From assembly GCA_005388305.1 (NCBI GenBank), contig GCA_005388305.1_4327.1: a DNA stretch of 27,210 bases, one strand, 5' to 3'. Numbering within the stretch: position 1 is the first letter of the stretch; each line of letters begins with the position of its first letter. A program made the translations under genes and the position numbers. Below, in pieces: positions 8,330 through 27,210 of the stretch. The notes under the pieces are model-generated. The model was given only the letters and a program-made list of their open reading frames with translations. It ran no database searches and was not told the origin of the DNA. This stretch comes from Escherichia coli. Lineage in GTDB: Bacteria; Pseudomonadota; Gammaproteobacteria; Enterobacterales; Enterobacteriaceae.

Positions 8330-8617
8330 CTAACTATAATAGTTCGCTATTAGGTCGTCAACCTGTTTAAACGAACCAACGACAAAAACATTCGCACCAC
8401 GTTTACGCATACGCTCGTGCTCACGTAACTGGTGTGGGTCTGGCTTCGTGTTTTCGTCTTTCTTAACCTCGACGAACAAGACGATGCCGCCGGGTAGAAT
8501 TACCAGCAGGTCGGGAGCGCCGGAGCGCCCCTCATAGGAAAGTTTACGAACGAGGCCGCCGATAGCCTCGAATCGCTCTTTTGCGTATTTCTGCACGCGC
8601 CCCTCAGGCGTACTCAT
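8330..8617 (-). CDS. VRR-NUC domain nuclease, 95 aa
   Basis: Small PD-(D/E)xK-type protein with GAPDLLV…VEVKK acidic/Lys catalytic pattern typical of VRR-NUC; GGGAGGGG RBS upstream of the ATG at 8617. Confidence 0.7.
   Translation of the reverse strand: MSTPEGRVQKYAKERFEAIGGLVRKLSYEGRSGAPDLLVILPGGIVLFVEVKKDENTKPDPHQLREHERMRKRGANVFVVGSFKQVDDLIANYYS
8333..8361 (-). promoter_or_regulatory. sigma70-like promoter (TTGACG-17-TATAGT on the - strand) inside a copy of the conserved 30-bp element
   Basis: + strand reads AACTATAATAGTTCGCTATTAGGTCGTCAAC; reverse complement gives -35 TTGACG (8361-8356), 17-bp spacer, -10 TATAGT (8338-8333). Overlaps the 3' end of the VRR-NUC CDS and sits ~35 nt upstream of the 63-aa gene. 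Confidence 0.5.
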
Positions 8618-8698
8618 CTATACACCCCTCCCGTTTCGTATGCGCGATACCGCAGCGAGGGCAGATTCGACAGTCTTCTTCATATAACCAGTAAATTT

Positions 8699-8830
8699 TC
8701 ATTCCAGCACCCACAGATAAATTGCGATGAATATACCCAATACGGCAACCATCATGCCGTATTGGCCTTCGCGACAGTAGACACCGGCAGCAAATCCCGT
8801 CAGTACCGCGATAATCAGTTTACTTAGCAT
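8699..8830 (-). CDS. putative small hydrophobic membrane peptide, 43 aa (below ORF-track cutoff)
   Basis: ATG at 8830 overlaps the 3' end of the polymerase gene by 11 nt. Translation MLSKLIIAVLTGFAAGVYCREGQYGMMVAVLGIFIAIYLWVLE has two hydrophobic stretches. No independent support. Confidence 0.2.
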   Translation of the reverse strand: MLSKLIIAVLTGFAAGVYCREGQYGMMVAVLGIFIAIYLWVLE

Positions 8831-11099
8831 AACGGTGCACCTCTTCCCCGGCCCATGTTAGCGGGAATCCTTCAGCCCATTCAGGTAATGAGCATAACAG
8901 GTCACCCATCTCTTTAACCGTGTACTCCGGCGTGTCTGGCGTTTCGGCGACACATTCATCGTGTACGTGGAGTACAATTGGGTAGCCCGCTGCCTCGACC
9001 GTCAGGAGTCCGTTAACCAGTAAATCACGGCACAACGCCTGGATGATGTTTTCACACAATTTTCCGCCGTGTGTGTACAAAGTTGTCCACTGGCGGGTGG
9101 TCTGATTTTCGCCCTGGTATTTAATGCGAACGTTAGTTGTTACGCGCCCGTCCTCGTCAGTCTCTTTAGTGACGCTTAAACCTATACCAGGGTAGGACAT
9201 AATGCGCCCGGACGGCAACTCCACGCACAACCACCAACCCGGCACAAAGTTACCCTGTCTGTCTTTCTCTTTAGTACGCCATATGCGAATAGCTCTGTCG
9301 CCGTTAAGGCGGACTCTGGCCCCCGCCCAAAACTCTCGTCCCGGATTTCTGATTGCGGCAATTACCGAATCCTTAAGGTCGTTCCAGAATTTCACTGTTT
9401 CCGGATGGGCCTCCCGCCACATGCGCTTGATAGCATCGCAGGTGCGCCAGACTTCCTTTGGCAGCACATAGGAGGCCCGTTCGTCTTTTTTACCGGGTTT
9501 TGGGGGTCGCTTAGCCTCCTGAATCCGCGCCCATTCATAACCTCTGGCAGTAGCCGCCCATATATGATCAGGGAATGTCCCCCGCATTGTCTCCGTCATT
9601 TTAAANNNNNNNNNNNNNNNNNNNNNNNNNNNNNNNNNNNNNNNNNNNNNNNNNNNGCCGCCCTCATAGCCGAGGCCAAGCTCGCAACATTTCCCGACCT
9701 GTCGTAGGTCTTTACGGGTGGCTTTCAGTTCTATGGGGTCCATACCAAACATCTTACCAGCTGTGGCGCAATAAATATCAATCCCCGCGCGGAACGTATC
9801 AAGGGCGGACGTCTCCCCCGCCGTCCAGGCTAACCCACGCCCTTCCACGTTCGAGTAGTCGGCAACGAGCAACTTATTGCCTTTTTCCGGGATAATGCAA
9901 CTGCGGACAGTTGAGGCTGTTAGTTTAGATACGTCGAAACGGCGATGCGCCCGACCTTTTAACAGCAAATTGATGCCGAACGATAAGGGGTTAAGCCTGC
10001 GGTTCCAGTCTTCGTCGGACTCCCACGGCTGGCGTACAAGTTTCTTTTCCTCGTTAGTCGGGTCGTCATGGTAGTACCCGCGCGACAGGTTCTGCGGTTG
10101 GAACCCTTTACCCGCAAATCGTAAAGTGCGCTTTGCCCCACCGTACTGGATGCAACCGCGACGGCGTCCGTCTTTGGACCGTCCTAGCAGTAGCGGTTTG
10201 TATTTTGTTGACGCCGTGGAGGCCGCGCCGAGGCGCATCTCAATGATTGTGCGTGCATCGTCCGGTAAGTCGTCGTCCTCTAGCAAGCCTTCGAGCGTTG
10301 CTTTCTGCGCATTATAAATATTGTAGGCCGGTGCCAGTTCCCGGAGGATTGGCAGAAAATCTTTGCCAGTTAGTTTCCCTCCGAATTTCGCGCGGGCCTC
10401 GTTTTTTAGCTCTTGCTTGTGGCGTTCCACTGCCGCTACCGCCGCCTCAGCAAGAGCCGTGTCAACAAAGAAGCCTCGGTCGTTAATTAACTGGTCCAGT
10501 TCCAGTACACGGTCTTCGAACTCGGAGTTACCCCAACGCGGCAACTTATGGAACACTTCACGCATCGCGGTGATGTCGCTAACGGCGTACTTGATGAACA
10601 GCGCCCACTCATCCGGGTGCGTTTCAGCAGTGTAGCGGCGAATTTTGTAGTTCTTCGGCGTCGGTTTAGAGAAACGCTGAATAAGCGCTTTGCCTCGTTT
10701 GTCTTTCGCGTTGTCTGCAGACACGCCAAGCACTTCGCACAATGCGTCGAGTGAACCCGGCAGCGCGTGACGAAACGCCCAAATCATCGTATCAATGGTG
10801 TTGCTTACCGGAATATCAAAGCCCCAGCAGTGTTTCATGATGAGCCTGTCGAACATTGAGCCGTTGTGCCACACCATCTTGATGCGACTGTTTGGCTTAA
10901 CCAGGCGGCGCAGTGCGCGGTGCAAATCTCCCGGCATGTCGCTGCCGTCGGTGCAATCCCATACCTGTACAGGCTCGTCGTCAAAAGCGTATGTGCAGAT
11001 AAGCACTTCGGTAGTTGGATGTTCGGCGTAAGCGTAGGAGCCGACTTTCTTCAAATCGGCTTCGGAGAATGTTTCAAAGTCTAAGAACAGGTAACTCAT
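8820..11099 (-). CDS. family A DNA polymerase with 3'-5' exonuclease domain, 759 aa (interrupted by an assembly gap)
   Basis: Exo I LFLDFETFS, Exo II WHNGSMFDRL, Exo III YAVSDITAM, pol motif A LLVADYSNVEGRGLAW, motif B RKDLRQVGKCCELGLGYEGG, motif C VLHVHDECV. A run of 17 X residues in the translation corresponds to the N run. Confidence 0.9.
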   Translation of the reverse strand: MSYLFLDFETFSEADLKKVGSYAYAEHPTTEVLICTYAFDDEPVQVWDCTDGSDMPGDLHRALRRLVKPNSRIKMVWHNGSMFDRLIMKHCWGFDIPVSNTIDTMIWAFRHALPGSLDALCEVLGVSADNAKDKRGKALIQRFSKPTPKNYKIRRYTAETHPDEWALFIKYAVSDITAMREVFHKLPRWGNSEFEDRVLELDQLINDRGFFVDTALAEAAVAAVERHKQELKNEARAKFGGKLTGKDFLPILRELAPAYNIYNAQKATLEGLLEDDDLPDDARTIIEMRLGAASTASTKYKPLLLGRSKDGRRRGCIQYGGAKRTLRFAGKGFQPQNLSRGYYHDDPTNEEKKLVRQPWESDEDWNRRLNPLSFGINLLLKGRAHRRFDVSKLTASTVRSCIIPEKGNKLLVADYSNVEGRGLAWTAGETSALDTFRAGIDIYCATAGKMFGMDPIELKATRKDLRQVGKCCELGLGYEGGXXXXXXXXXXXXXXXXXFKMTETMRGTFPDHIWAATARGYEWARIQEAKRPPKPGKKDERASYVLPKEVWRTCDAIKRMWREAHPETVKFWNDLKDSVIAAIRNPGREFWAGARVRLNGDRAIRIWRTKEKDRQGNFVPGWWLCVELPSGRIMSYPGIGLSVTKETDEDGRVTTNVRIKYQGENQTTRQWTTLYTHGGKLCENIIQALCRDLLVNGLLTVEAAGYPIVLHVHDECVAETPDTPEYTVKEMGDLLCSLPEWAEGFPLTWAGEEVHRYAK
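9606..9656. other. assembly gap (51 consecutive N) inside the DNA polymerase gene
   Basis: Directly visible run of n characters; its length is a multiple of 3 so the frame is formally preserved, but the true length and sequence are unknown. Confidence 0.95.
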
Positions 11100-11119
11100 T
11101 ATTTTCGACCCTTAGTAAA

Positions 11120-11139
11120 AAGGCCCAATGAAGGGCCTT
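11120..11139 (-). terminator. intra-operon hairpin (putative partial terminator/attenuator) between the SSB-like gene and the polymerase
   Basis: AAGGCCC-AATGAA-GGGCCTT stem-loop in the 60-nt gap between the two genes; same stem sequence as the terminators at 5613 and 26948; only a short T-run follows on the - strand. Confidence 0.35.
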
Positions 11140-11158
11140 AGTTAAATTGATTCAGATA

Positions 11159-11785
11159 TTAGCGGCGACGACGCTCGCGGCGCGGTGCTTCATCTTCTTC
11201 GTCGTCTTCCAGGTCGTTGACGCTTGCAGCGACTTTAGAACCACCGAACGCTTTACCTTCGCCTACGTATTTAATCGCCAGCAGGTTAACCCCGAGAACT
11301 TTATATTTCTGGCTGAACCAGATTTCGACGCTTACGTTAGCGACGCAGCCGCTGTAAACCTGTTCACCTTCAATCTGTTCGCCGTCTACATTGAAGTCCT
11401 GTTCTACCTGAGTCTCGCCTTTTTTAGAGGTTACAATCAGTGGCTGTTTCTGTGCCTTCGCCTTGAAGTAGAAGCCTTCCGGGAAGTCTTCAAACGGATT
11501 GTCGCGCTCGGCAATGTCTTTAATCGCACATTTATCCATGTGCTTACCTTCGCCATAGTTGGACTTCATCCACTTCTCAGCGGCAGCTGCGCCCAACGCT
11601 TCTTCAACCACAGCGTAAACGGTGTCGTAGAGCGCGTCGATTTGTGCGTGGTCAGACGGCAGGATGATAGTCGCGCTGTACTGGCCTTTAGTGATTGAGC
11701 CATCATCGTTTTCACGGTCTTTTTCGCGTTCGAATACGTTAACCCATGCAGTGTTTACTTTACGCAGATTCAGTTTAATACCCAT
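11159..11785 (-). CDS. putative single-stranded DNA-binding protein (DUF2815-like), 208 aa
   Basis: Sits between the DUF2800 nuclease and the DNA polymerase, which is the conserved DUF2800-DUF2815-PolA gene order in phage replication modules; highly charged C-terminal tail (DLEDDEEDEAPRRERRRR); its own strong promoter immediately upstream. Confidence 0.45.
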   Translation of the reverse strand: MGIKLNLRKVNTAWVNVFEREKDRENDDGSITKGQYSATIILPSDHAQIDALYDTVYAVVEEALGAAAAEKWMKSNYGEGKHMDKCAIKDIAERDNPFEDFPEGFYFKAKAQKQPLIVTSKKGETQVEQDFNVDGEQIEGEQVYSGCVANVSVEIWFSQKYKVLGVNLLAIKYVGEGKAFGGSKVAASVNDLEDDEEDEAPRRERRRR

Positions 11786-11838
11786 CGTGATTTCTCGCTT
11801 TTCAGTTTACTCCGGGAACTGCCCGGCCAGTGATTAGA

Positions 11839-11867
11839 ACTATAATAGCTAACTATTCAGGTGTCAA
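11839..11867 (-). promoter_or_regulatory. sigma70-like promoter (TTGACA-17-TATAGT on the - strand) inside a copy of the conserved 30-bp element
   Basis: + strand GAACTATAATAGCTAACTATTCAGGTGTCAACAC; - strand -35 TTGACA (11867-11862), 17-bp spacer, -10 TATAGT (11844-11839); ~50 nt upstream of the SSB-like ATG. Confidence 0.55.
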
Positions 11868-11871
11868 CACT

Positions 11872-13122
11872 TTATTCCAAATCTTCTTCACTAACCTGAT
11901 TCCACTCAGGACGTTTGTCGTCTGCCGTTGCGACACATGGTGCGCCTGGCTTACGGGTAATAAACGGCTCAAGCGCCGCCATCTCATCCGCAGAAAGAAC
12001 TTTTGCTGCCTCCGTAGGGGACATCAATACCTCTTTTTTGAGAATGTCGCCGTGTGACACTTCAATCGCATCGGCATCTTTCCACGCACGATTACCCGGG
12101 CGGCCTTCTACCAGTTTGTACCCTGGCACTTTCTTACCGGAATGCAATGTGGCGGACATCGCTTTCTCAACCTTGTCGATGTGCTGGCGTAACAGCGGCA
12201 ACTTCTCATACTCAACTACGAGTTGCTCCGTCGTCAGTTCCAGCACAAAGTCGTCTTCAAGTTCTTCCGCCAGTACAGAATTAACCGTCTTTGTACGCGC
12301 GGCACACTGTTCAGAGAACCGGCACCACTGGCAACCATCGACCGACGGCCTGAAGTCAGACGCTTTCAGGTTCTTTTTACCACGGAAATACGCATCAAGA
12401 GCTAACAGTGCACGTTTCTGCGCAAACTTAGCGAACAGTTCCAGACCTTCAACCGAGATGTCCCACTCCGACGCACCGCCAGCATACGGCTGGAATATTA
12501 CCAGGCGAACAACAGTGATGTTATATCGTCTCTTGAGTCGGCGATAAACACCGAGAGCATAAAGCATAAGCTGCTTGTTTTCTTTCGCTTCGACGCGATG
12601 CCGTCCAGTTTTAAGGTCGCCAATAATGAGCATGTGCTCGTCGGTGTTCGCCAGTTCCTGAACGGCAACAATGTCGGCGGTTCCGAATGTCTCAACGCCT
12701 TCGTAGCCTGGATGCAATACCTCACTAAGATTGACACGCATCTCGAGTTTGGCGTAAGTCGCTACATCGATAACAGCTTTGCAGTGGTCGGTGTACTTGC
12801 GCACCTGCTCAATCATGTCAGCCGTAATCAGTACCGCGCCTTTCATCGGGCTGATTAGCGCCTTAATCTGGCCTTTACCCTCATCCAGCACGTAAGCACC
12901 TACTTCGCGCCCTAACGGCAACGCAGTGCCTTTGATGTACTGGTTTAAGTGCATCTCAGCTATGGTGTGCATAGCCGTTCCTAATACGGCGGCTTTACCT
13001 GACGTGTTAGGAATATCTTTTTCACAGGCCAGTGATGCACTGCACGCCAGCCACTTTTTAGCACCAGACGGCGACAGCAGGGCGTGTACGTCATTATTGC
13101 CACCACGTTCTTTTAGTTTCAT
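11872..13122 (-). CDS. PD-(D/E)xK exonuclease, DUF2800 / Cas4-RecB-like, probably with Fe-S cluster, ~416 aa
   Basis: N-terminal HALLSPSGAKKWLACSASLAC, nuclease core GTADIVAV…IIGDLKTG, C-terminal cysteine cluster CQWCRFSEQC (one N-terminal plus three C-terminal Cys, as in Cas4/AddB Fe-S nucleases). Start set at ATG 13122 (MKLKERGG…) because it forms an ATGA overlap with the upstream small ORF; the ORF-track start is 13143. Confidence 0.75.
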   Translation of the reverse strand: MKLKERGGNNDVHALLSPSGAKKWLACSASLACEKDIPNTSGKAAVLGTAMHTIAEMHLNQYIKGTALPLGREVGAYVLDEGKGQIKALISPMKGAVLITADMIEQVRKYTDHCKAVIDVATYAKLEMRVNLSEVLHPGYEGVETFGTADIVAVQELANTDEHMLIIGDLKTGRHRVEAKENKQLMLYALGVYRRLKRRYNITVVRLVIFQPYAGGASEWDISVEGLELFAKFAQKRALLALDAYFRGKKNLKASDFRPSVDGCQWCRFSEQCAARTKTVNSVLAEELEDDFVLELTTEQLVVEYEKLPLLRQHIDKVEKAMSATLHSGKKVPGYKLVEGRPGNRAWKDADAIEVSHGDILKKEVLMSPTEAAKVLSADEMAALEPFITRKPGAPCVATADDKRPEWNQVSEEDLE

Positions 13123-13277
13123 GCTCTTAACCCCACACCCCATTTAGCTTTACGCGTTTTACGTTTGCAGGCGCACGTGTCGCCACTACGGTTGAAGATG
13201 ACCAGCCAAGTTGAGTTACTCACTCGAAAAGGCTGGTGACGTCTAACAAATAGAAGTCGCGCTTTACGGTTCGTCAT
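13119..13277 (-). CDS. small basic protein, 52 aa (below ORF-track cutoff)
   Basis: ATG 13277-13275 overlaps the TGA of the 90-aa gene (ATGA), and its own TGA overlaps the ATG at 13122 of the nuclease (ATGA). Translation MTNRKARLLFVRRHQPFRVSNSTWLVIFNRSGDTCACKRKTRKAKWGVGLRA. Confidence 0.3.
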   Translation of the reverse strand: MTNRKARLLFVRRHQPFRVSNSTWLVIFNRSGDTCACKRKTRKAKWGVGLRA

Positions 13278-13546
13278 ACCCTGACCTCCCACTGGTCGAT
13301 TAAATGCCGCGTCTTATGGTCGCAATGCATAGCCCAGCTATACATCGACTCGAAGACATAAAAGTCACTTTTAACGAAAGTCGTGCGCTTAATCTGCGAC
13401 AGGTGACGGCCTATATCTTTCGGCTTCGGTATTTTTCCAAGGTAGGCCATCTCTTCCATCTGGTGTGCACCGGACGGCGCACGCAATAACCATAGCGCCT
13501 CTGTGTTATCCCGCCTGTCAACGGCGCGGTATAGTTGGTAAATCAT
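13274..13546 (-). CDS. hypothetical protein, 90 aa
   Basis: ORF with GAGGG RBS-like sequence upstream of ATG 13546; part of the leftward operon; no recognisable motif. Confidence 0.5.
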   Translation of the reverse strand: MIYQLYRAVDRRDNTEALWLLRAPSGAHQMEEMAYLGKIPKPKDIGRHLSQIKRTTFVKSDFYVFESMYSWAMHCDHKTRHLIDQWEVRV

Positions 13547-13566
13547 AATCCCGACCCTCAGTTAAA

Positions 13567-13582
13567 GCGGCCCGAAGGCCGC
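13567..13582 (-). other. GC-rich hairpin between the acidic-protein gene and the 90-aa gene
   Basis: GCGGCC-CGAA-GGCCGC stem-loop in the 43-nt intergenic gap; possible attenuator or RNA-stability element. Confidence 0.3.
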
Positions 13583-13589
13583 GGGATAG

Positions 13590-14111
13590 TTATTCTTCTT
13601 CGAAATACTTGTTCTTGATTGCTGTCAGGCGCTCCAGATACTCAGCCAGGTCTTCGTCTTTAATCGCTGCAATCTTCATCTTCTTACCGGTGAACTCTTC
13701 CAGCAGTTCGTCAGAATCGTCGCACGCGGCCTCGCTTGGGCCTTCGTTAATCGCATCGTCGATAGCCTGAATCTGGTCGCGCAGAGACTGGTAATCGACT
13801 TCTTCTTTCTCTTCTTCCGGCTCTGGCGTTGGTTCCTCTACTTTGTCCTTACGCGGCTTGCGCTTCGGCTTCTCTTCTTCTGCGGGTTTAGCGTCAACGG
13901 TGTCTTCACCTTCTACCGGGATTTCTTTCGCCTTCTCGACTTCTTCAAGTGCTTTAGCCAGCTCTTTTTTAACTGTTTCTACCCCCGTGACCGCGACGTC
14001 AACAGTCAATTCACCTACAGATTTGCTAGTCGGTTGTTTCACACTGTTTGCAGCAATCAGTTCGTGGGCGACTACGAAACGTTCCAGTAATACTAAGAAT
14101 TTCTCTAACAT
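13590..14111 (-). CDS. highly acidic hypothetical protein, 173 aa
   Basis: First gene downstream of the promoter at 14143-14171; GAGAGGAGA RBS; extremely D/E-rich with one Lys/Arg patch (KPKRKPRKDK). Confidence 0.6.
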   Translation of the reverse strand: MLEKFLVLLERFVVAHELIAANSVKQPTSKSVGELTVDVAVTGVETVKKELAKALEEVEKAKEIPVEGEDTVDAKPAEEEKPKRKPRKDKVEEPTPEPEEEKEEVDYQSLRDQIQAIDDAINEGPSEAACDDSDELLEEFTGKKMKIAAIKDEDLAEYLERLTAIKNKYFEEE

Positions 14112-14142
14112 TATTTATTCTCCTCTCGTTTGGTATGGGCTA

Positions 14143-14171
14143 ACTATAATAGTGAACTATTCACTTGTCAA
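14143..14171 (-). promoter_or_regulatory. sigma70-like promoter (TTGACA-17-TATAGT on the - strand) inside a copy of the conserved 30-bp element, in a divergent intergenic region
   Basis: + strand TAACTATAATAGTGAACTATTCACTTGTCAATGG; - strand -35 TTGACA (14171-14166), 17-bp spacer, -10 TATAGT (14148-14143). A second partial copy of the element (GGTACTATTCACATATCAA, 14197-14215) lies just before the rightward XRE gene. Confidence 0.55.
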
Positions 14172-14235
14172 TGGGCTTTTCTAAAATAATTAATATGGTA
14201 CTATTCACATATCAACTGACTAAGGAGTAATTGAC

Positions 14236-14451
14236 ATGCAACCATCTGAACTAGGCATCCGTGTAGAACAGCGCCGTAAAGAACTCAGTATTTCCCAGCG
14301 CCGTCTGGCTGTCCTGACCGGCGTTTCCCAGGGTGCAATTAACCAGCTTGCACTCGGGGTAACGCGGGACGTCCGCCCAGCAACGCTGTTTAAACTGGCG
14401 GAAGTGCTAGAGGTAGACGCCAAGTGGCTGGCGTTCGGTGAAGGGGCTTAA
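14236..14451 (+). CDS. XRE-family helix-turn-helix transcriptional regulator (Cro/CI-like), 71 aa
   Basis: HTH signature QRRLAVLTGVSQGAINQLALG; AAGGAG RBS before ATG 14236; followed immediately by a terminator; the only rightward gene inside the leftward operon. Confidence 0.8.
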   Translation: MQPSELGIRVEQRRKELSISQRRLAVLTGVSQGAINQLALGVTRDVRPATLFKLAEVLEVDAKWLAFGEGA

Positions 14452-14467
14452 CGCCCCTTTCTTTTTA
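14441..14467. terminator. rho-independent terminator after the XRE gene (between convergent genes)
   Basis: AAGGGGC-TTAAC-GCCCCTT hairpin containing the XRE stop codon, followed by TCTTTTTATT. Confidence 0.55.
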
Positions 14468-14662
14468 TTGCACCTTTATCGGGTATCTTTTGCGAAACTT
14501 ACCTAACCCGCAGTATACGCTGTAAGCCTCTGTGTAACTGTACACAACATGATACCCGCGCCCGTAAGGAACTACGTTAAGAACTTCCACTACTTCGCCT
14601 CTGTGGTTGGTGCATTTATTACCTTTAAGTTCGTCGCTTACTTCTTTAAATTTACCGCTCAT
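14465..14662 (-). CDS. hypothetical protein, 65 aa
   Basis: ATG at 14662 forms an ATGA overlap with the primase-helicase stop (14659-14661); no recognisable motif. Confidence 0.45.
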   Translation of the reverse strand: MSGKFKEVSDELKGNKCTNHRGEVVEVLNVVPYGRGYHVVYSYTEAYSVYCGLGKFRKRYPIKVQ

Positions 14663-16926
14663 TCCAAATCCTCCTCTGTCACTGTCAGCATCTCATTCGG
14701 TTCATATATTGTCTTCGGAATCTTGTTATCAGTTATCCGGGTGTTCAGCCTGTAACGGCAAGGGATTATCTGATTGTTTTCGTCAGTCCCCGGAACAAGA
14801 TACCCAGCCTCAACCATTTTCTTAATCTTCCCGCGTTCTATGGCTTCTTTGGAGTTAAACGCCTTTGCATTGGGGTCAGACTGTGCGAGCTTATTAGCGG
14901 CGGCGACTGTGATGCCTTCGTTGCCGTTGTAGGTTCCTTCCGCCAGTTCAAACGCCGCCAGTATCGTGGCTTCCGAACTGTTGACGGCGTTCTCCATGGT
15001 TCTACGTACGTTTTCTTTACCTTCCTTAGTCAGTCCTTCTTCCCGCTCTTTCTCCTCGTCAGTCTTGAACGGCTCGAAACCCCACGGCATTAACACAAGT
15101 GCCTTATGCGGCTCCGGCAGGTCGAGGTTTACGATTGTGCCGTATTCCTCCGTGCTACCGAGGAACTCAACCGCACGGTACTCTTTCGGCGGCGGCGCTT
15201 CACGGAACTGTACAGACTCCAGCACCATACCAACCGTCTTCTGTTGAGGCCCGTGCTTGAATTTCGAGTGGTATACATTTATCTGGCGGTCGGTAGCTCG
15301 TTCGATTGTCAGTTCCACGTCGACGCCAGCATACAGCGCCCCACTGCCACGGGCTTTCTTTCCGCCCTTCGGCGTATGGTGGACAACGCCTACCGCAGCT
15401 TTAGTCGCGTCACGTACTTCTTTCAGGATGGCGATAACCTTACCCATGCCGATTGCCGTTGATGAACTGTTCTCGTCGAACTTATCAATCGTCAGGGCTA
15501 GCGTCTGGTTGAGGGTGTCGAACGCAACCATGCCGATGGGTTCGTCACCCGCAGTTTCACGCATCAACTTAATCAGGCTTTTCAGTTTTCCGACTTCGCC
15601 CATGTCGATGACATGTACATAATCTTTACCTTCCTCGCCATATTTAGCCGCGAGCGCATCGATACGGGTGCGGGTAGCTGCGCCGCCTTCACCGTCGATA
15701 TAGAAATGGTGGCAACGCTGCGTATCTGCCCCCGCAAACCGGTATCCGGCGGCGCTCAGGTACGCCATCCCCAGCGTATAGAACGATTTGTACGTGCCGG
15801 ATTCCCCGACAATATCCCAGATACAATCTGACGGCATGTACCCTTCAACGACGAAATCCGCCTTTACCGGTTCCGGTAACTCGTCATCCTCTGAGTCCTC
15901 GTCATCTTCCAGGTCGTCGAGGCTGCATGAAACAGATTCACGTGCACCCCATCCGATGGCCTCTGCGACTTCACTGAACGGCAGCCCCGTCGCATCGCAC
16001 GCATACTTCCACACCTCTTTCGGTGACATGCCTTCGGTCGCCGTAATGTCGGTGTCGTGAATCATTGTTACGTTCGGCGCCTCATATCCCTCTCGCGGGA
16101 AGCACAGCAGGAAGTCATCCGGGCGCGGCGTCGGGTCGCTGTAGTTTTCTGCGTGTTCTGGCGTAGCTGGCATCTTAAGGCCTCGTGGCGTCATGATACC
16201 GCCATACTCGAACGCCAGTGCCTCGAACGCGTCGGTAAACGCGGTGCGCAGTTCTTCCGGTATCTGGTAATCCGATGCGCTGCTAACGTCAACGGCGGGG
16301 ATGCCTTCCAGTAACTCGTCCGGGTCAATCAGGTCGTTGCGGCGTGACCAGATAACGGTAGAGCCAACCGGAGGCAGGTACATCGGTTGCGAAAGAGTGA
16401 ACCCGCTGCGGTCAGCACCCATGCTTTTGAAGAAGTGTTCCAGCAATCCATGGCGAACACGGATGATGTCACCACCTTCGACCGGACGGGCCAGCGGCAT
16501 GACGACGCGAAAGCGCGGGGACTCGTCGGTATGTGATGCCGTGGTATAGAGGCACATGGCCTGGCGGCTACGCTTAACCAGGCGTACAGCTTCCTGATAC
16601 TCTTCCGGCGTTGCACTGTCGAAGTCCAGATACGCCAGCGACGATTTGCTTACAGACGCATCACAGCGATAGAAGAAACCCTTACGCGCTTGCTTAAAGT
16701 CGCCGGTTTTCGGGTCTTTTACAGTGCTGTGCGTCGAGTCGCACGCGGCGGTGATATAACCGGGCGCGGTCTTCGGGTTAATTCCGTCACGGACAGCATC
16801 AAGCGGCTGGATTAACTCTTTCAGGTCGTCCAGTGTTGCCGTGTGTGTGGTTCTGACGTTTATATCCTTTTTCTCTGCCCGCGCGTTGCGACGTGACCAC
16901 GAGTAGGATAAAATTACATCGGACAT
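14659..16926 (-). CDS. replicative primase-helicase (N-terminal primase-polymerase-like region plus C-terminal RecA/RepA-like AAA_25 ATPase), 755 aa
   Basis: Walker A GESGTYKS, Walker B MVAFDTL, VVHHTPKGG motif typical of RepA-like ATPases; N-terminal half has an acidic LAYLDFD motif reminiscent of prim-pol catalytic sites. Confidence 0.75.
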   Translation of the reverse strand: MSDVILSYSWSRRNARAEKKDINVRTTHTATLDDLKELIQPLDAVRDGINPKTAPGYITAACDSTHSTVKDPKTGDFKQARKGFFYRCDASVSKSSLAYLDFDSATPEEYQEAVRLVKRSRQAMCLYTTASHTDESPRFRVVMPLARPVEGGDIIRVRHGLLEHFFKSMGADRSGFTLSQPMYLPPVGSTVIWSRRNDLIDPDELLEGIPAVDVSSASDYQIPEELRTAFTDAFEALAFEYGGIMTPRGLKMPATPEHAENYSDPTPRPDDFLLCFPREGYEAPNVTMIHDTDITATEGMSPKEVWKYACDATGLPFSEVAEAIGWGARESVSCSLDDLEDDEDSEDDELPEPVKADFVVEGYMPSDCIWDIVGESGTYKSFYTLGMAYLSAAGYRFAGADTQRCHHFYIDGEGGAATRTRIDALAAKYGEEGKDYVHVIDMGEVGKLKSLIKLMRETAGDEPIGMVAFDTLNQTLALTIDKFDENSSSTAIGMGKVIAILKEVRDATKAAVGVVHHTPKGGKKARGSGALYAGVDVELTIERATDRQINVYHSKFKHGPQQKTVGMVLESVQFREAPPPKEYRAVEFLGSTEEYGTIVNLDLPEPHKALVLMPWGFEPFKTDEEKEREEGLTKEGKENVRRTMENAVNSSEATILAAFELAEGTYNGNEGITVAAANKLAQSDPNAKAFNSKEAIERGKIKKMVEAGYLVPGTDENNQIIPCRYRLNTRITDNKIPKTIYEPNEMLTVTEEDLE

Positions 16927-16984
16927 GTTGTATTTCCTTCAGCAAGTAATTTGGCCTCGGCGTTCACCGCGTCGGGGCTTTCTT

Positions 16985-17260
16985 TTATTCCAGGTCGCGG
17001 GAGATATTACCCTCGGGCACCAACACTTTTCCAATACTTCTCGCTTTCTCTGTAATCGGCGTTGCTCTTTTTGCCCGATAAAACTTTCCTTTATTAAGAA
17101 CCTCTCCGTGTTGCTCGAGAACATCCAAAGCATGTTTAATCGGATTTACACCGTAATTATCTAACCGGTATCTCCGAAGCCCGTCTACCGTAAAAGCGCC
17201 GTTCGCCTCGGTCAGTCTGCGTGCACACATTAATATGTGTTTCTGGAATTTAGTTAGCAT
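16985..17260 (-). CDS. hypothetical protein, 91 aa
   Basis: ORF overlapping the upstream HTH gene by 11 nt; second gene of the leftward operon; no confident motif. Confidence 0.5.
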   Translation of the reverse strand: MLTKFQKHILMCARRLTEANGAFTVDGLRRYRLDNYGVNPIKHALDVLEQHGEVLNKGKFYRAKRATPITEKARSIGKVLVPEGNISRDLE

Positions 17261-17429
17261 CTTTCACGTTCTCCTTAATCCACGCCTCCACGGTAGCTCG
17301 GTCAAACGTACCTGGCTGCCGGTAGCCGTTAATAACACGACAACACTCCGGGAACTTACCGGACCGAAGCCAGCGATTAAGAGTCATAGGGGAAACTCCG
17401 ATTAAGTCTGCTACTTCTTTCTGTGTCAT
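17250..17429 (-). CDS. AlpA/excisionase-like helix-turn-helix DNA-binding protein, ~59 aa
   Basis: MTQKEVADLIGVSPMTLNRWLRSGKFP is a typical HTH_17/AlpA-type motif. Start set at the internal ATG 17429 (AGAGGG RBS 7 nt upstream); the ORF-track start 17459 would lie inside the putative promoter. Confidence 0.6.
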   Translation of the reverse strand: MTQKEVADLIGVSPMTLNRWLRSGKFPECCRVINGYRQPGTFDRATVEAWIKENVKDAN

Positions 17430-17458
17430 TTTACGCACCCTCTTTACCAAGTGAAACA

Positions 17459-17487
17459 ACTATAACACCTACAATAACTAAACACAA
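17459..17487 (-). promoter_or_regulatory. putative sigma70-like promoter of the leftward operon (TTGTGT-17-TATAGT on the - strand) within a degenerate copy of the conserved element
   Basis: + strand CAACTATAACACCTACAATAACTAAACACAACC; - strand -10 TATAGT (17464-17459), -35 TTGTGT (17487-17482). Confidence 0.35.
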
Positions 17488-17492
17488 CCTAT

Positions 17493-17519
17493 TGACAAAA
17501 TAAAATGTAGCTGTAAAAT
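17493..17519 (+). promoter_or_regulatory. putative rightward sigma70-like promoter (TTGACA-15-TAAAAT), back-to-back with the leftward promoter
   Basis: TTGACA at 17493-17498, TAAAAT at 17514-17519; the 15-bp spacer is shorter than optimal. Confidence 0.35.
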
Positions 17520-17752
17520 CAACGTATCGAAGGACCTTAGTTCAGAATTACTTAGAAACATTATTCTTAAGTCTCGGGTACTTAAAGCCCCGCCTTAAAG
17601 CGGGGCGCTAAACAGTACTCTTGGTAACGTTAGTATCTAAGTTTCCTCAAAGTAACAGCAAGTGGCAAGAAAGCCCCCGTCTATTTAAATTTTACCCTCC
17701 TTCATAAGTACCTGATAATTAAAAGTTTCTATAGTTGCCGTGAGTGAGGTAG

Positions 17753-17811
17753 AGAGTACTTCACTCCGCTGGGGTGGGCTAACGCCCACCCACTGCGTTG
17801 CGTACTCTTTT
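17753..17811 (+). terminator. compound hairpin followed by a T-tract (putative terminator or structured RNA element) in the non-coding control region
   Basis: Outer stem AGAGTAC (17753-17759) / GTACTCT (17802-17808) enclosing inner stem GGGTGGGC-TAAC-GCCCACCC (17772-17791), followed by TTTT (17808-17811). Confidence 0.4.
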
Positions 17812-17850
17812 AAGAAACGAAAGAATCACAACGGCAACGTAACTATTTTC

Positions 17851-17879
17851 TTGCACACCCAAACATAATAGGGTACTAT
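17851..17879 (+). promoter_or_regulatory. sigma70-like promoter (TTGCAC-17-TACTAT) inside a copy of the conserved element, driving the rightward small-gene block
   Basis: -35 TTGCAC 17851-17856, spacer containing CATAATAG, -10 TACTAT 17874-17879, then AGGAG RBS and ATG 17914. Confidence 0.5.
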
Positions 17880-17913
17880 TCACTTATCGAAACGAGACAG
17901 AGGAGTGAGGGTT

Positions 17914-18102
17914 ATGTTTAAGAATGGTCAGTTGGTTAAAGCTGTAAATAGCTATTATTGTGTTGTTGAAAGAGAGTCTGTCGTTTTTCTCGGAACTTAT
18001 AGGGTGCGTTTTCTCGGGAAAAGATTAGGCGCGGTAGATTGGTTCCGTGAAGACGAGCTAACACTCATCGGCAACAATTTTAAATTCAAAGGGGCGAAGT
18101 GA
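17914..18102 (+). CDS. hypothetical protein, 62 aa
   Basis: ATG 17914 with AGGAG RBS (the ORF track begins at an upstream GTG); first gene after the promoter. Confidence 0.55.
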   Translation: MFKNGQLVKAVNSYYCVVERESVVFLGTYRVRFLGKRLGAVDWFREDELTLIGNNFKFKGAK

Positions 18103-18302
18103 TGGAAGAATTATTTGAAGAACTGAAACATCATGATTTCGAGGAAATATATTTCGTAGCTGAACGCTACGAGGTGCATTTATCGGACGGGATTACAATT
18201 ATTACGATGGATAGCCAGCAAATGCTAAATAGCTTACAGGCAATCAAAACGGCATCGAATCGTGATGCTTGTGCCGACGACTCTGAGGGAGGTTGCCGTT
18301 AA
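18102..18302 (+). CDS. hypothetical acidic protein, 66 aa
   Basis: ATG 18102 overlaps the upstream TGA by 1 nt (TGATG). Confidence 0.55.
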   Translation: MEELFEELKHHDFEEIYFVAERYEVHLSDGITIITMDSQQMLNSLQAIKTASNRDACADDSEGGCR

Positions 18303-18502
18303 TGCGAATCCGTATAACTGACCGCAGGCTTATAGATTTCGGTATCTCGGTAGGTGATGTTTTTCCGGCGTTCAGCAGCAACCATTATGGTTTTATGATT
18401 GAGTACAAAGGGTCGTTATTGTTCGTGTATCGGGATGAATGCGAGGTTCTGGTATGGGTCCCTATAACCGGTTTCGTCTGGAGCGTCTACGTCGCGGATT
18501 AA
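18302..18502 (+). CDS. hypothetical protein, 66 aa
   Basis: ATG 18302 overlaps the upstream TAA (TAATG). Confidence 0.55.
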   Translation: MRIRITDRRLIDFGISVGDVFPAFSSNHYGFMIEYKGSLLFVYRDECEVLVWVPITGFVWSVYVAD

Positions 18503-18648
18503 GTAACGCTAAATTAGCTCTCGATATATGGGAGAGTACGCCATATTCTTCCTCGAAGGCATGGTTTGTAGCCCGTGCTAAAGCGTCCGTACAGTATCGC
18601 GAGTACAAGTTAAATAGTTTCCTTAGACACCACGGGGTTGAGTTATGA
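18454..18648 (+). CDS. hypothetical basic protein, ~64 aa (start uncertain)
   Basis: ORF in another frame overlapping the previous gene by ~50 nt; candidate starts ATG 18439 or 18454; Arg-rich N-terminus. Confidence 0.3.
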   Translation: MGPYNRFRLERLRRGLSNAKLALDIWESTPYSSSKAWFVARAKASVQYREYKLNSFLRHHGVEL

Positions 18649-18788
18649 GAGAAGCATTCGAACGGTGGGCCTTCGTCGAGGGTCTGCCGGTTAATAAGGG
18701 TTCAAAGAAAGAGTACCTGAACGTAAAGACGCGTCTCGCATGGCGGGCGTGGAAAGCTGGTGTGTTGTTTATCGCGAATCAGAGGTGA
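18645..18788 (+). CDS. hypothetical protein, 47 aa (below ORF-track cutoff)
   Basis: ATG 18645 in ATGA overlap with the upstream stop; translation MREAFERWAFVEGLPVNKGSKKEYLNVKTRLAWRAWKAGVLFIANQR. Confidence 0.35.
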   Translation: MREAFERWAFVEGLPVNKGSKKEYLNVKTRLAWRAWKAGVLFIANQR

Positions 18789-18791
18789 TTT

Positions 18792-18992
18792 ATGGGTGAG
18801 TGGATTAAGTGTAGTGAGATGCTGCCGGGTAATGGGTATACGGATAAAGAGTTCCTGGTGTATGAAACGTTAAATAACGCAGTTCAGCACGATTATTACA
18901 TAGTTCCTGATGACGGGAGAAAGCCCTTCTGGAATCACTACGATAAGTACGTGACGCACTGGATGCCGTTACCAGAGCCGCCGGAAGTGTGA
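18792..18992 (+). CDS. DUF551-like phage protein, 66 aa
   Basis: C-terminal THWMPLPEPPE is the signature I recall for DUF551 proteins of enterobacterial phages; AGAGG RBS 6 nt before ATG. Confidence 0.55.
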   Translation: MGEWIKCSEMLPGNGYTDKEFLVYETLNNAVQHDYYIVPDDGRKPFWNHYDKYVTHWMPLPEPPEV

Positions 18993-19126
18993 TGTTCAAT
19001 AGTTTGGGATTTTACTGAGTGACTTACGCTGCTACACAGCAGCGTACAACTTTAACTTAGTGTCGTCAAAAGGCGACACTTTCATCAAACGCAACAATCG
19101 AAGCGACTATTGCAGGAGATGCAACA

Positions 19127-19300
19127 ATGATTACTAAAGAACAGGCTGAACGACTACTCACGTTAATCGACACGATGATTGACGTAAAAACCGATTTAGC
19201 AACGGCAACAGAGGAATCCGCTACCTGGTCGCTTGAAGAAAGAGAAGCAGAAGCGGAAAGGGAGTTACTGGCGTTCATCGGCTCTATAACACACCAATAA
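19127..19300 (+). CDS. hypothetical protein, 57 aa (below ORF-track cutoff)
   Basis: ATG 19127 with AGGAG RBS; same strand as neighbours; replaces the antisense ORF-track call 19066..19278 (-). Confidence 0.4.
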   Translation: MITKEQAERLLTLIDTMIDVKTDLATATEESATWSLEEREAEAERELLAFIGSITHQ

Positions 19301-19307
19301 AATTTAC

Positions 19308-19336
19308 TTGCACACTAAGATATAATAGGCTACTAT
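19308..19336 (+). promoter_or_regulatory. sigma70-like promoter (TTGCAC-17-TACTAT) inside a copy of the conserved element
   Basis: -35 TTGCAC 19308-19313, spacer containing TATAATAG, -10 TACTAT 19331-19336; RBS GAGAGGAGAG and ATG 19368 follow. Confidence 0.5.
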
Positions 19337-19367
19337 TCATTTACACGAGCGAGAGGAGAGACAGAAT

Positions 19368-19496
19368 ATGAAAGATTATAGCGAAGTAACTTTAGGTGAG
19401 TTGCAGGACGAGTACGAAGATATGCGCTACCCGTTCATCTGCGACGGGGACTACAACGGCGTCTATAACGGGGTGAGCGAAGAATATGAACACTAA
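19368..19496 (+). CDS. hypothetical acidic protein, 42 aa (below ORF-track cutoff)
   Basis: ATG 19368 with strong RBS directly after the promoter; overlaps the next gene by 11 nt. Confidence 0.4.
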   Translation: MKDYSEVTLGELQDEYEDMRYPFICDGDYNGVYNGVSEEYEH

Positions 19497-19965
19497 AAAC
19501 GAAATATTCGAGTACCTGATCGACCAGCTACGGCAGCAGGTAAATAACAGCCGGAGCGAAGACCTGGCGCATGAGGTGCAGTCACTTAAGAATCAGTTAC
19601 GTGATGCGTCGGCGCAGATTAAGGAGTTGCATAAGGCGTTGGCTACGGCTACAGGTGACATAGGTGCTTATATAGCAGCAGAGCAATCTGGTTGCCGTAA
19701 GGAAGATACTCAGTACAACGCCTGGAGGCCGCATTATGGTGCACGACAACCTGTGCCGGATGGGACTATGGTATTTATCCGGTATCGCAACGGGGTGGAG
19801 CCGAAACACAGTGTAGCAGCAGAAAAGCGGTCGTGGATTTGGGATGGAACATACGCAGACATAGTGGAATACAAGATTGACACACAGGAATGTGAACATG
19901 ACTATCGTTTGGTTCTGTGGTGTAGCGACTTACAGCAGTGCTCTAAATGCGGGGTGATCAAATGA
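19486..19965 (+). CDS. hypothetical protein with N-terminal coiled coil and C-terminal Cys/His cluster, 159 aa
   Basis: Largest gene of the early block; C-terminus CEHDYRLVLWCSDLQQCSKCG suggests a zinc-binding module. Confidence 0.6.
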   Translation: MNTKNEIFEYLIDQLRQQVNNSRSEDLAHEVQSLKNQLRDASAQIKELHKALATATGDIGAYIAAEQSGCRKEDTQYNAWRPHYGARQPVPDGTMVFIRYRNGVEPKHSVAAEKRSWIWDGTYADIVEYKIDTQECEHDYRLVLWCSDLQQCSKCGVIK

Positions 19966-20165
19966 CCAGCATATTATTTATCTGGGTACTGTCGGCGGGC
20001 CAGATGCAACTAGCGGCATCGGAAACGTTTTATTCGACGGAGGCGTGCCAGTCCGCGGCACGCGCCGCAGAGAACGCGCACTTCCTGTTTCAGGGCGACA
20101 AGCCCAACGATTCAGAGGTACGCGCTATCTGCTCACCTAAGCGACTTGGTAAACAGGAGAAATAA
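19962..20165 (+). CDS. small protein with N-terminal hydrophobic signal/anchor sequence, 67 aa
   Basis: ATG 19962 in ATGA overlap with the upstream stop; N-terminus MTSILFIWVLSAGQMQLAAS is signal-peptide-like. Confidence 0.5.
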   Translation: MTSILFIWVLSAGQMQLAASETFYSTEACQSAARAAENAHFLFQGDKPNDSEVRAICSPKRLGKQEK

Positions 20166-21842: not shown

Positions 21843-21864
21843 ATCTATTTTCTGCAATGACTAG

Positions 21865-21893
21865 TTGACTATTACCATCGACCCTATTATATT
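21865..21893 (+). promoter_or_regulatory. sigma70-like promoter (TTGACT-17-TATATT) within a variant of the conserved element
   Basis: -35 TTGACT 21865-21870, -10 TATATT 21888-21893; flanked by duplicated CCATCGAC (21875-21882 and 21897-21904) and CTATTA motifs; RBS GGAG and ATG 21927 follow. Confidence 0.5.
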
Positions 21894-21926
21894 TACTCCA
21901 TCGACAACGAGAACGGAGTAGAGAAG

Positions 21927-25448: not shown

Positions 25449-26933
25449 ATGGTTTCCGCAAACATTAACGCAGGGCAAGGGCAGAACGTTAAAACCCGCC
25501 ACCGCCAGTACGAAGAGTATTTCCCTAAGTGGCAGAAGGTGCGACATGCGCTTTCTGGCGACCTGACATCGTATCTACGTGACGTCAGTAGGAACGAGCC
25601 GGACCCGGTTTACGGTCGCCAGCGTCAGGCTGAATACGAAGCGGGGGCAATTTGCTACAACTTCACCAAGCGAACGCTTTCAGGCATGGTCGGCAGCGTA
25701 ATGCGCAAAGACCCCGAGATGATTATTCCGTCTCAGATGGAATACCTGACCACTAACTGTGACGGGTCGGGCGTTGGCCTGTGGCAGCACGCACAGGATA
25801 CTCTGTATGAGATTGATGCTGTTGGTCGCGGTGGCTTGCTGGTTGACGCCCCCGCGGTAGAAGTAGCTACCATGGCAGAGCAAAACGAGGGTTTACTAAA
25901 CCCAACAATCGCTTTCTACACCGCAGAGAATATCATCAACTGGCGTCTCCAGCGCGTCGGGTCTGTTAATCGTGTGGTTATGGTTGTATTGCGTGAGGAA
26001 TACGAGTACACCGATGGCGCGGATGAGTTCAGCCCCAACTACGGCGAGCAATACCGCGTCCTTGATATTTTCGAAGGCCAGTATCGCCAGCGTCTGTACC
26101 GCTTTAACCAGAAAGGTGCACTGATGGAAGGTGGCTATATCGAAATATTCCCGAAACTCGGTAATATTCCGGTCGGGGTGATTCCGTTCACATTCATTGG
26201 TGCAGGGAATAACGACTCAACCCCTGACGATGCACCTTTGCTGCCGTTGGCTGAACTTAATATCGGGCATTTCCGTAACAGCGCGGACAATGAGGAGTCC
26301 AGCTTCGTTGTGGGCCAGCCAACCTTGTTCATTGCGCCGGGTGAGAACATGAGCATGGCTCAGTGGAAAGAAGCTAACCCTCACGGAGTGCGCATGGGGT
26401 CGCGTTCAGGCCATAACATCGGTTACGGCGGCAATGCGTTTCTGGTCCAGGCCGGTGAGAACAACCTAGCCAAGCAGAACATGTTGGATAAAGAGAACCA
26501 GGCAATCCAGATTGGTGCACAGCTTATTACCCCGACGCAGCAAATCACCGCGGAATCGGCACGCCTGCAACGCGGCGCTGATACGTCCGTTATGGCAACA
26601 ATCGCACGTAACGTAAGCATGGCGTATACCGATGCGTTGCGCTGGGTCGCGGGTATGCTTGGGATTAGCGACAGCACTGAAATTGAGTTCAAACTGAACA
26701 TGGAGTTCTTCCTGCAACCAATGACCGCCCAGGACCGCGCTCAGTGGATGGCGGACATTAACGCGGGCCTGTTACCGGCTACCGCTTACTATGCTGCGTT
26801 GCGTAAGGCGGGGGTAACTGACTGGACAGACGAGGACATTCAGAACGCTATCGAGGATGCGCCGCTGCCGTTAGATGCTGCCGCTCCGGTAGCAGGAGAG
26901 ATTCCGCAGTCGGCGCGGCAACAACAGGAGTAA
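25449..26933 (+). CDS. portal protein (putative), 494 aa
   Basis: Size and position immediately downstream of the large terminase subunit; AAGAGGA RBS identical to the tailspike's; no motif-level confirmation. Confidence 0.6.
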   Translation: MVSANINAGQGQNVKTRHRQYEEYFPKWQKVRHALSGDLTSYLRDVSRNEPDPVYGRQRQAEYEAGAICYNFTKRTLSGMVGSVMRKDPEMIIPSQMEYLTTNCDGSGVGLWQHAQDTLYEIDAVGRGGLLVDAPAVEVATMAEQNEGLLNPTIAFYTAENIINWRLQRVGSVNRVVMVVLREEYEYTDGADEFSPNYGEQYRVLDIFEGQYRQRLYRFNQKGALMEGGYIEIFPKLGNIPVGVIPFTFIGAGNNDSTPDDAPLLPLAELNIGHFRNSADNEESSFVVGQPTLFIAPGENMSMAQWKEANPHGVRMGSRSGHNIGYGGNAFLVQAGENNLAKQNMLDKENQAIQIGAQLITPTQQITAESARLQRGADTSVMATIARNVSMAYTDALRWVAGMLGISDSTEIEFKLNMEFFLQPMTAQDRAQWMADINAGLLPATAYYAALRKAGVTDWTDEDIQNAIEDAPLPLDAAAPVAGEIPQSARQQQE

Positions 26934-26947
26934 GTAAAAAAAAAACT

Positions 26948-26975
26948 AAGGCCCCATAACAGGGCCTTAGTTTTT
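26948..26975. terminator. bidirectional rho-independent terminator between the portal gene and the convergent small gene
   Basis: AAGGCCC-CATAACA-GGGCCTT hairpin with an A-run upstream and TTTTT downstream. Confidence 0.6.
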
Positions 26976-27165
26976 AGTTAAGGTACGCTGCTCGCCCCGC
27001 CATATACCCCGCGAGATACATTTTAAACCATTCGTTGCATTCACCGTTCTCATAGTACGCACCAATTTTCCACATTTCTTTTGTTTCACGATCAAAGCGG
27101 AAGCGCCCCTTGCAGTTCTTCTCAAATAATTCCATGATTTCATACCATTCTTTAGAATATAACAT
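26974..27165 (-). CDS. hypothetical protein, 63 aa, AT-rich leftward gene (moron-like)
   Basis: ORF on the strand opposite the packaging genes; GGAGA RBS; copy of the conserved promoter element upstream; terminator downstream; visibly more AT-rich than its neighbours. Confidence 0.5.
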   Translation of the reverse strand: MLYSKEWYEIMELFEKNCKGRFRFDRETKEMWKIGAYYENGECNEWFKMYLAGYMAGRAAYLN

Positions 27166-27181
27166 TTTTGTATCTCCTCGT

Positions 27182-27210
27182 TTCGATAACTGAATAGTAC
27201 ACTATTATAT
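27182..27210 (-). promoter_or_regulatory. copy of the conserved promoter element on the - strand (partial, cut by the window end)
   Basis: Reverse complement reads ATATAATAGTGTACTATTCAGTTATCGAAA, near-identical to the copy at 17864-17893; -10 TACTAT would be 27200-27195; the -35 lies beyond the window. Confidence 0.35.

Follow-up and report, generated by a model that had tools for sequence, protein, structure and literature searches.

A 14-bp palindrome, AATAG-N4-CTATT, lies at eight transcription-unit starts in a 27,210-nucleotide stretch of DNA filed under Escherichia coli (contig GCA_005388305.1_4327.1 of GenBank assembly GCA_005388305.1), and each of the eight sites overlaps a sigma-70-type promoter. 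The stretch, referred to at its full length as the window, is by its sequence matches a Kagunavirus-like siphophage of the Guernseyvirinae, a K1G-like coliphage. The palindrome is probably the operator of a Cro-like, autoregulated repressor whose regulon is made up of sigma-70 promoters, and the phage's own 71-amino-acid XRE protein is its most likely binder. The present analysis establishes the sites themselves, the promoters around them, their conservation and the family to which the protein belongs, and this reading is built on those results.

A palindrome at eight promoters

An original prediction, made from the letters of the window alone, had described a conserved element of about 30 bp recurring at transcription-unit starts. 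Side-by-side comparison of the copies revealed that the core common to all of them is the inverted repeat AATAG-N4-CTATT. The exact palindrome occurs six times in the 27-kb window, compared with 0.01 expected from shuffled sequence, and matches with up to one mismatch occur nine times compared with 0.70 expected. The longer 21-nucleotide core originally proposed yields five matches (0.01 expected) when up to three mismatches are allowed. The six near-identical copies reported earlier are therefore confirmed by the six exact palindromes, with positions that were right to within a few bases. The exact palindrome is found nowhere else in the 27 kb; the element is real, and generic AT-rich sequence is excluded as its explanation.

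All palindromes with up to one mismatch sit at promoters except that at 1732-1745 (AATTGAGTCCTATT), which lies inside an 851-amino-acid tail gene without promoter context and is probably due to chance. A supposed half-copy at 14197-14215 does mark a site, which is a full palindrome with one mismatch (14192-14205) rather than a half, and the supposedly degenerate copy at 21865-21905 likewise holds up in that it contains a one-mismatch palindrome at 21860-21873. No palindrome is present in the second degenerate variant, at 17458-17490, which has only a TATAGT -10 region in common with the others. The element had also been described as two ACTAT half-sites. Of these, the first is confined to the leftward promoters, in which it corresponds to the -10 hexamer read on the other strand, and the direct-repeat reading was rejected because this ACTAT is missing from the rightward copies.

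The eight sites and the promoters that they overlap are as follows, with operator centres given relative to the predicted transcription start:

8333-8361, minus strand: leftward promoter (TTGACG, 17-bp spacer, TATAGT); exact operator AATAGTTCGCTATT at 8338-8351, centre about -18.5; serves a 63-amino-acid protein gene, the methylase and the SNF2 helicase
11839-11867, minus strand: leftward promoter (TTGACA, 17-bp spacer, TATAGT; 11/12 consensus positions); exact operator at 11844-11857; serves the Enc34-type single-stranded DNA-binding protein, DNA polymerase and VRR-NUC genes
14143-14171, minus strand: leftward promoter (TTGACA, 17-bp spacer, TATAGT; 11/12); exact operator at 14148-14161; serves genes for a 173-amino-acid protein, a 90-amino-acid protein and the DUF2800/PD-(D/E)XK exonuclease, and is divergent from the XRE gene
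14176-14205, plus strand: the XRE gene's own promoter (weak -35 CTTTTC; extended -10 TGgTACTAT at 14196-14204); one-mismatch operator AATATGGTACTATT at 14192-14205 over the -10, centre about -12.5
17851-17880, plus strand: rightward promoter (TTGCAC, 17-bp spacer, TACTAT, at 17851-17879); exact operator at 17867-17880, centre about -12.5; drives a block of small genes starting at 17905
19308-19337, plus strand: rightward promoter (TTGCAC, 17-bp spacer, TACTAT, at 19308-19336); exact operator at 19324-19337; drives small genes from 19368 up to the holin and endolysin region
21860-21893, plus strand: rightward promoter (TTGACT, 17-bp spacer, TATATT, at 21865-21893; 10/12) directly after a terminator-like T-run; one-mismatch operator ACTAGTTGACTATT at 21860-21873 over the -35, centre about -33.5; drives small genes, then terminase and portal
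27193-27210, minus strand: leftward promoter at the window end, of the TTGCAC/TACTAT type on the opposite strand (-10 TACTAT at 27194-27199; the -35 would fall past the window end); exact operator at 27193-27206; belongs to a small open reading frame (ORF) at 26967-27165

The hexamers reported earlier were recovered in full, with TTGACA or TTGACG and TATAGT separated by 17 bp at the three leftward sites and TTGCAC and TACTAT, likewise separated by 17 bp, at two rightward sites. The three leftward promoters match the sigma-70 consensus at 10-11 of 12 positions, and in each the palindrome occupies the spacer and reaches the first base of the -10. As had been noted, the copy at 8338 falls within the final codons of the VRR-NUC ORF (8330-8617). 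The TTGCAC/TACTAT promoters match at 7 of 12 positions; these fall below the threshold of the promoter scan and were read directly. An ORF with a Shine-Dalgarno sequence follows on the same strand about 25-60 nucleotides downstream of all eight sites. Judged by hexamers, spacing, orientation and distance to the gene, the sites are ordinary host sigma-70-type promoters with predicted starts.

The position of the palindrome within these promoters is not fixed. Its centre lies at about -18.5 in three promoters, about -12.5 in four and about -33.5 in one, so that the overlap is not always with the -10, as the original prediction had held. The flanking asymmetry (ATAATAG...CTATTCA) is, in addition, inverted between the leftward and rightward promoter classes. 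One dyad is consequently found in three registers and two orientations, with core promoter elements overlapped every time (spacer plus first -10 base, -10, or -35). The variable register and orientation therefore fit a sterically occluding operator and not a polymerase-recognition element or the site of an activator that acts from a fixed position. An operator for a single phage-encoded regulator, serving promoters of either orientation, had been one of the two readings offered originally; it is the better supported, once the two half-sites are replaced by the dyad.

Similarity between the units extends into their leaders, which share ATCGA(A/C)AACGAG...GGAG or CCAAACGAGAGGAG just ahead of the start codon (17884-17905, 21899-21918 and, on the minus strand, 27170-27187 and 14115-14135). 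These shared leaders could be a common ribosome-binding context or the trace of promoter-cassette duplication. The small leftward ORF at 26967-27165 (58 or 63 amino acids) lies between the portal gene and the next structural gene, beside a long, bidirectional terminator-like hairpin at 26941-26975; K1G has no gene at this position.

Conservation of the dyad and the XRE protein

Positions 8000-20000 of the window align with Escherichia phage K1G and related phages at ∼93% identity, with 84% of the query covered, and hundreds of Salmonella Jerseyvirus records match the same interval at lower identity. The K1G genome contains six exact and three one-mismatch copies of the palindrome, all at promoters, including one before the head-gene block and one before the superinfection-immunity operon. 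Phage Jersey keeps TAATAG-N4-CTATTA at orthologous promoters although its helicase-primase is only 58% identical. At the Jersey site orthologous to the late promoter, one mismatch is likewise present, in the other arm than in the window, which hints that weaker binding at the late promoter may be under selection.

A set of 72 distinct leftward-promoter sites was compiled from Kagunavirus and Jerseyvirus genomes and IMG/VR contigs. These sites were picked for exact arms and so inform on variation of the centre and flanks only, not on arm conservation; among them the central N4 and the bases beside the -35 vary, and the spacer length varies by one base. The operator at the XRE promoter (14192-14205) is near-invariant across 36 distinct Kagunavirus sequences. 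Phylogenetic footprinting inside Kagunavirus was set aside, the whole intergenic region being too conserved to discriminate, and comparisons between genera took its place.

In the Cornellvirus-like phage St162, AATAG-N4-CTATT was not found, and a de novo repeat search of this genome returned nothing useful. The orthologous promoters of St162 carry AATA(C/G)-N4-(C/A)TAAT instead, a variant that can be written AATAS-N4-MTAAT. A search for this pattern located five sites at promoters, compared with 0.36 expected; the variant was itself read from the orthologous intergenic regions, and only the fifth site, in an intergenic promoter region, lay outside those used to define it.

In both K1G (14752-14765) and Jersey (16957-16970), one operator separates the leftward superinfection-immunity operon from the rightward tail operon. 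Across this dyad, weak hexamers resembling those of a promoter can be made out on either strand (in K1G, rightward, TTGGTG and TATTAT with a 16-bp spacer), and the single operator might control two divergent promoters.

Inspection of the window reveals two clear helix-turn-helix proteins:

14236-14451, plus strand: XRE/HTH_3 gene, 71 amino acids, recognition helix GVSQGAINQ; candidate operator-binding repressor
17250-17429: HTH_17 (AlpA/excisionase-like) gene, 59 amino acids

The XRE protein matches HTH_3 with an E value of 1e-11, and its nearest solved relative is phage 434 Cro, also of 71 amino acids (E 9e-7), followed by the 434 repressor and P22 C2. A Foldseek search with a single-sequence AlphaFold model placed 434 Cro, the 434 repressor and P22 C2 on top, although weakly (E 0.017 or worse); the model merges helices 1 and 2 and is taken only as consistent with the sequence match. 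The 434 Cro protein and the 434 and P22 repressors bind as dimers to 14-bp operators in which the outer arms are conserved and the centre is variable. The annotated cI/cro operators of phage D3 also have a 5-N4-5 layout; their sequence and recognition helix differ from those of the window, and the support that they lend is to the family geometry only. The XRE gene stands alone, with a terminator-like hairpin at its 3′ end (14440-14461) and an operator over its own -10, which is presumed to be an autoregulatory site. The recognition helices of the window protein (GVSQGAINQ) and its counterparts in Jersey (GVSQSLITH) and St162 (GVTQSAISH) all match the signature G[VI][ST]Q[GS]x[IV]x[QH].

The strongest evidence for the XRE protein as the binder comes from covariation between helix and operator in its relatives. 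Loci encoding XRE homologues were gathered from IMG/VR and, by a search with a four-sequence alignment, from bacterial genomes, and 32 of them, from outside the Guernseyvirinae and totalling ∼166 kb, formed the covariation set. Exact AWTAG-N4-CTAWT occurs 11 times in these loci, compared with ∼0.6 expected from base counts. It is present in six of the nine loci in which the homologue bears the helix signature and in none of the 23 others, and the sites lie within 100 bp upstream of the homologue gene. At two loci a second operator cluster follows just downstream in an OR/OL layout, with a divergent Cro-like gene that has the same helix.

The loci with matching operators are immunity regions on IMG/VR contigs and in prophages (L062, L063/L089, L069, L088 and L090 of the set). 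Complete CI/Cro-type immunity regions with A(A/T)TAG-N4-CTAAT operators were observed at L062 (2909-3772), L069 (2936-3662) and L088 (1421-1471). In L062 and L069 the repressor gene has operators on either side; in the 3.2 kb covered for L088, all those found are upstream of it. An A(A/T)TAG-N4-CTAAT operator specificity class appears to be common to those prophages and the Guernseyvirinae XRE protein.

A proposed repressor circuit and competing explanations

The choice of the XRE protein as the binder, its action as a repressor and the timing of that action are inferred from the comparisons above. According to the proposed mechanism, host sigma-70 RNA polymerase would read all of the operator-bearing promoters. 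As the 71-amino-acid Cro-like protein accumulates, it would bind the single operator at each promoter as a dimer. Since each operator lies across the spacer, the -10 or the -35, a dimer in place would shut out RNA polymerase, and the replication operons, the small-gene operons and the XRE gene would be turned down. Nearly all phage transcription units, the XRE gene's own included, would then be repressed, in a manner resembling the lowering of early promoters by Cro in lambdoid phages. Promoters at ∼17471-17519, which have no operator, would be exempt. Exact operators are found at the replication-gene and small-gene promoters and one-mismatch operators at the XRE and terminase-operon promoters, and this difference may give graded repression.

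A more speculative extension, which we consider doubtful, is that in the Guernseyvirinae, strictly virulent phages without a polymerase, sigma factor or known antiterminator of their own, this one protein runs the whole transcription programme. In such a Cro-only circuit, the order in which units are expressed, and how strongly, would depend on the quality of each operator (exact or one mismatch) and on its register (-12.5, -18.5 or -33.5), and the resulting minimal temporal circuit would be a relic of, or convergent with, the lambdoid switch.

Several observations weigh against repression by the XRE protein. Between Kagunavirus and Jerseyvirus the protein retains only 48% identity, with four of seven recognition-helix positions changed (SQGAINQ and SQSLITH, respectively), yet the operator core is the same. 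Operators at nearly every promoter, those for lysis and packaging included, are odd for a virulent phage and leave the escape of the late genes unexplained. The timing classes in the one RNA-seq study of a relative, Kagunavirus K1B4, are given by gene and are too coarse (5-120 min) to bear on the timing of repression. Among the covariation loci, three with the signature (L055, L086 and L091) have no exact site, and the loci belong to one related subfamily and are not fully independent.

Some of the same facts could be accommodated if the operator were bound by another phage protein, such as the AlpA-like HTH_17 protein, the 91-amino-acid protein encoded at 16985-17260 or a NinH-like protein. 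The HTH_17 protein is ∼70% identical between Kagunavirus and Jerseyvirus, better conserved than the XRE protein over an unchanged operator core, which also counts against the latter. Its gene is the first of its operon, and the promoter of that operon (∼17458-17498) has no palindrome, as might be expected if the regulator were expressed first; one HTH-domain gene is labelled “early” in the RNA-seq work on a relative, a weak hint only, as this gene was equated with HTH_17 by gene order. St162, by contrast, has the variant motif at five promoters, yet neither tblastn nor Pfam finds an HTH_17 homologue in it. Among solved structures HTH_17 is nearest to a BldC-type protein, and BldC-type proteins bind direct repeats rather than dyads. 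No covariation ties HTH_17 to the motif, whereas the XRE family has such covariation. A different binder is accordingly unlikely, and of the three candidates put forward in the original prediction (XRE, AlpA-like and the 91-amino-acid protein), XRE fits best and the AlpA-like protein is disfavoured.

A shade less likely again is that the XRE protein binds and activates, or acts dually, being needed for the weak TTGCAC...TACTAT promoters to fire but repressing the strong leftward set. The hexamers of the rightward promoters are conserved despite matching only 7 of 12 consensus positions, suggesting that help may be needed. The operator at these promoters, however, spans approximately -19 to -6, over the -10, where no known activator class acts, and MerR-type activators require spacers of 19-20 bp, in comparison with 17 bp here. 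We give little weight to the proposal that the copies are promoter cassettes duplicated or exchanged at module boundaries without a dedicated binding protein, like the PeSLs of phage T4, in which an early promoter is joined to a stem-loop and which have a presumed role in driving recombination. The copies do lie at gene-block boundaries, and the rightward promoters share, besides the palindrome, the -35 TTGCAC, the -10 and the leader ATCGA(A/C)AACGAG...GGAG. Cassette copying sits poorly with the variation of centre and flanks among the 72 exact-arm sites, with arms that persist at orthologous sites between genera with 58% protein identity, with the three registers of the dyad relative to the hexamers, and with the occurrence of the same dyad next to homologous regulators in unrelated prophages.

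Exploitation by the phage of a host transcription-factor site is highly improbable. It has no direct support, the hosts (E. coli and Salmonella) being different but closely related; we know of no E. coli regulator with an AATAG-N4-CTATT consensus, and the motif tracks the phage's XRE variant (AATAG...CTATT in the window and AATAS...MTAAT in St162). Hardly credible at all is a phage-specific promoter class recognised by an RNA polymerase or sigma factor of the phage's own, which was the second reading of the original prediction and the published label of the motif (PMC9825357). PHIRE does detect the motif, a genome-wide element of ∼20 bp, and it is listed in that paper as a “Phage RNAP promoter.” No RNA polymerase or sigma factor was found among the large ORFs of the window or in annotated K1G, Jersey, fTaEco01 and St162. 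Unlike T7-type phage polymerase promoters, the copies have canonical sigma-70 hexamers with 17-bp spacing, and the motif occurs in three registers and both orientations relative to the predicted start.

Genome context and relation to known systems

The gene order of the window agrees with that of annotated K1G and comprises the following blocks:

Rightward block: tail and K1 endosialidase genes
Leftward replication block: SNF2 helicase, C5 methylase, VRR-NUC, family A DNA polymerase, Enc34-type single-stranded DNA-binding protein, DUF2800 nuclease and helicase-primase
Further rightward genes: small genes, lysis genes, terminase and portal

The 984-amino-acid tailspike (2654-5608), a complete K1 endosialidase, contains beta-propeller, beta-barrel, tail-spike and S74 chaperone domains, and the phage is therefore specific for the K1 capsule, as is K1G.

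The leftward promoter of the HTH_17/helicase-primase operon, at ∼17458-17498, lacks the palindrome even with one mismatch. The top sigma-70 consensus match of this region is a second operator-free promoter, on the plus strand at 17492-17519 (TTGACA, 16-bp spacer, TAAAAT; 11/12), and the divergent HTH_17/helicase-primase promoter overlaps the same stretch. The plus-strand promoter faces ∼340 nucleotides without an ORF of more than 42 amino acids. GC-rich hairpins are present at 17585-17610 and 17771-17792 within the stretch 17471-17860, for which an RNA fold z-score of -4.6 was obtained; an Rfam scan of the window gave no matches. This stretch might encode a small RNA, form an immediate-early leader or serve as an origin region.

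The element itself is already known, and its novelty was overrated in the original prediction. The paper on the Kagunavirus fBC-Eco01 tabulates seven copies identified by PHIRE (consensus tgAATAGTa-ccTATTat-T; Table S2 of PMC9825357), and this consensus is the reverse complement of the window element. Seven PHIRE promoters are likewise given for phage Golestan. In the Jersey GenBank record (KF148055), the orthologous sites are annotated as sigma-70 promoters of the form TTGACA(N15-18)TATAAT, and the PVP-SE2 record also annotates promoters. These sources describe the same sequence element without an operator or regulator reading. Genome papers deny the presence of Cro-like genes (PMC9825357 and PMC5217580, the latter stating their absence from Jerseyviruses), and no paper was found in the literature that reads the motif as an operator or ties it to the XRE protein. 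The published phage RNA polymerase label is wrong; what is new is the dyad, its variable register and the link to XRE.

Kagunaviruses and Jerseyviruses rank with the most frequently isolated phages for use in therapy and food biocontrol against E. coli K1, uropathogenic E. coli and Salmonella, and their regulation is essentially unstudied. If the XRE protein is a global Cro-like repressor, this would explain transcription control by host polymerase alone, provide a compact and directly testable repressor-operator pair and correct the annotation. The type of mechanism is classical, and the conceptual gain would be modest.

Many scattered sites for one phage repressor are also known from mycobacteriophage L5, in which gp71 binds stoperators across the genome. 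L5 stoperators are asymmetric and orientation-dependent, lie in transcribed regions and block elongation, whereas the window sites are symmetric and overlap promoters. The T4 PeSLs are similar in being repeated promoter-bearing sequences at the boundaries of small-gene blocks but differ in that the conserved core here is a short dyad at orthologous positions across genera. The lambdoid-type immunity regions at L062, L063/L089, L069, L088 and L090 are closer, as their CI- and Cro-like proteins share the recognition-helix signature and their operators have the form A(A/T)TAG-N4-CTA(A/T)T. These are, however, classical temperate switches, with a CI protein that has a C-terminal domain, a divergent cro gene and clustered operators flanking the repressor gene.

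The closest comparison is with 434 Cro and the 434 and P22 repressors. There is no lambdoid lysis-lysogeny switch of that kind here: single operators, not tripartite OR/OL clusters, stand at each of at least eight scattered promoters, the annotations of K1G, Jersey and fTaEco01 list neither a CI-type repressor nor an integrase, and a CI partner, an integrase and a lysogeny module are absent. The half-site also differs (AATAG in the window, where binding is predicted, and ACAA in 434). The XRE protein nonetheless resembles this group as a small, single-domain HTH_3 protein of 71 amino acids that finds its best sequence and fold matches there, and the sites resemble 434 operators in consisting of a 14-bp dyad over the core promoter, with one copy at the regulator's own promoter.

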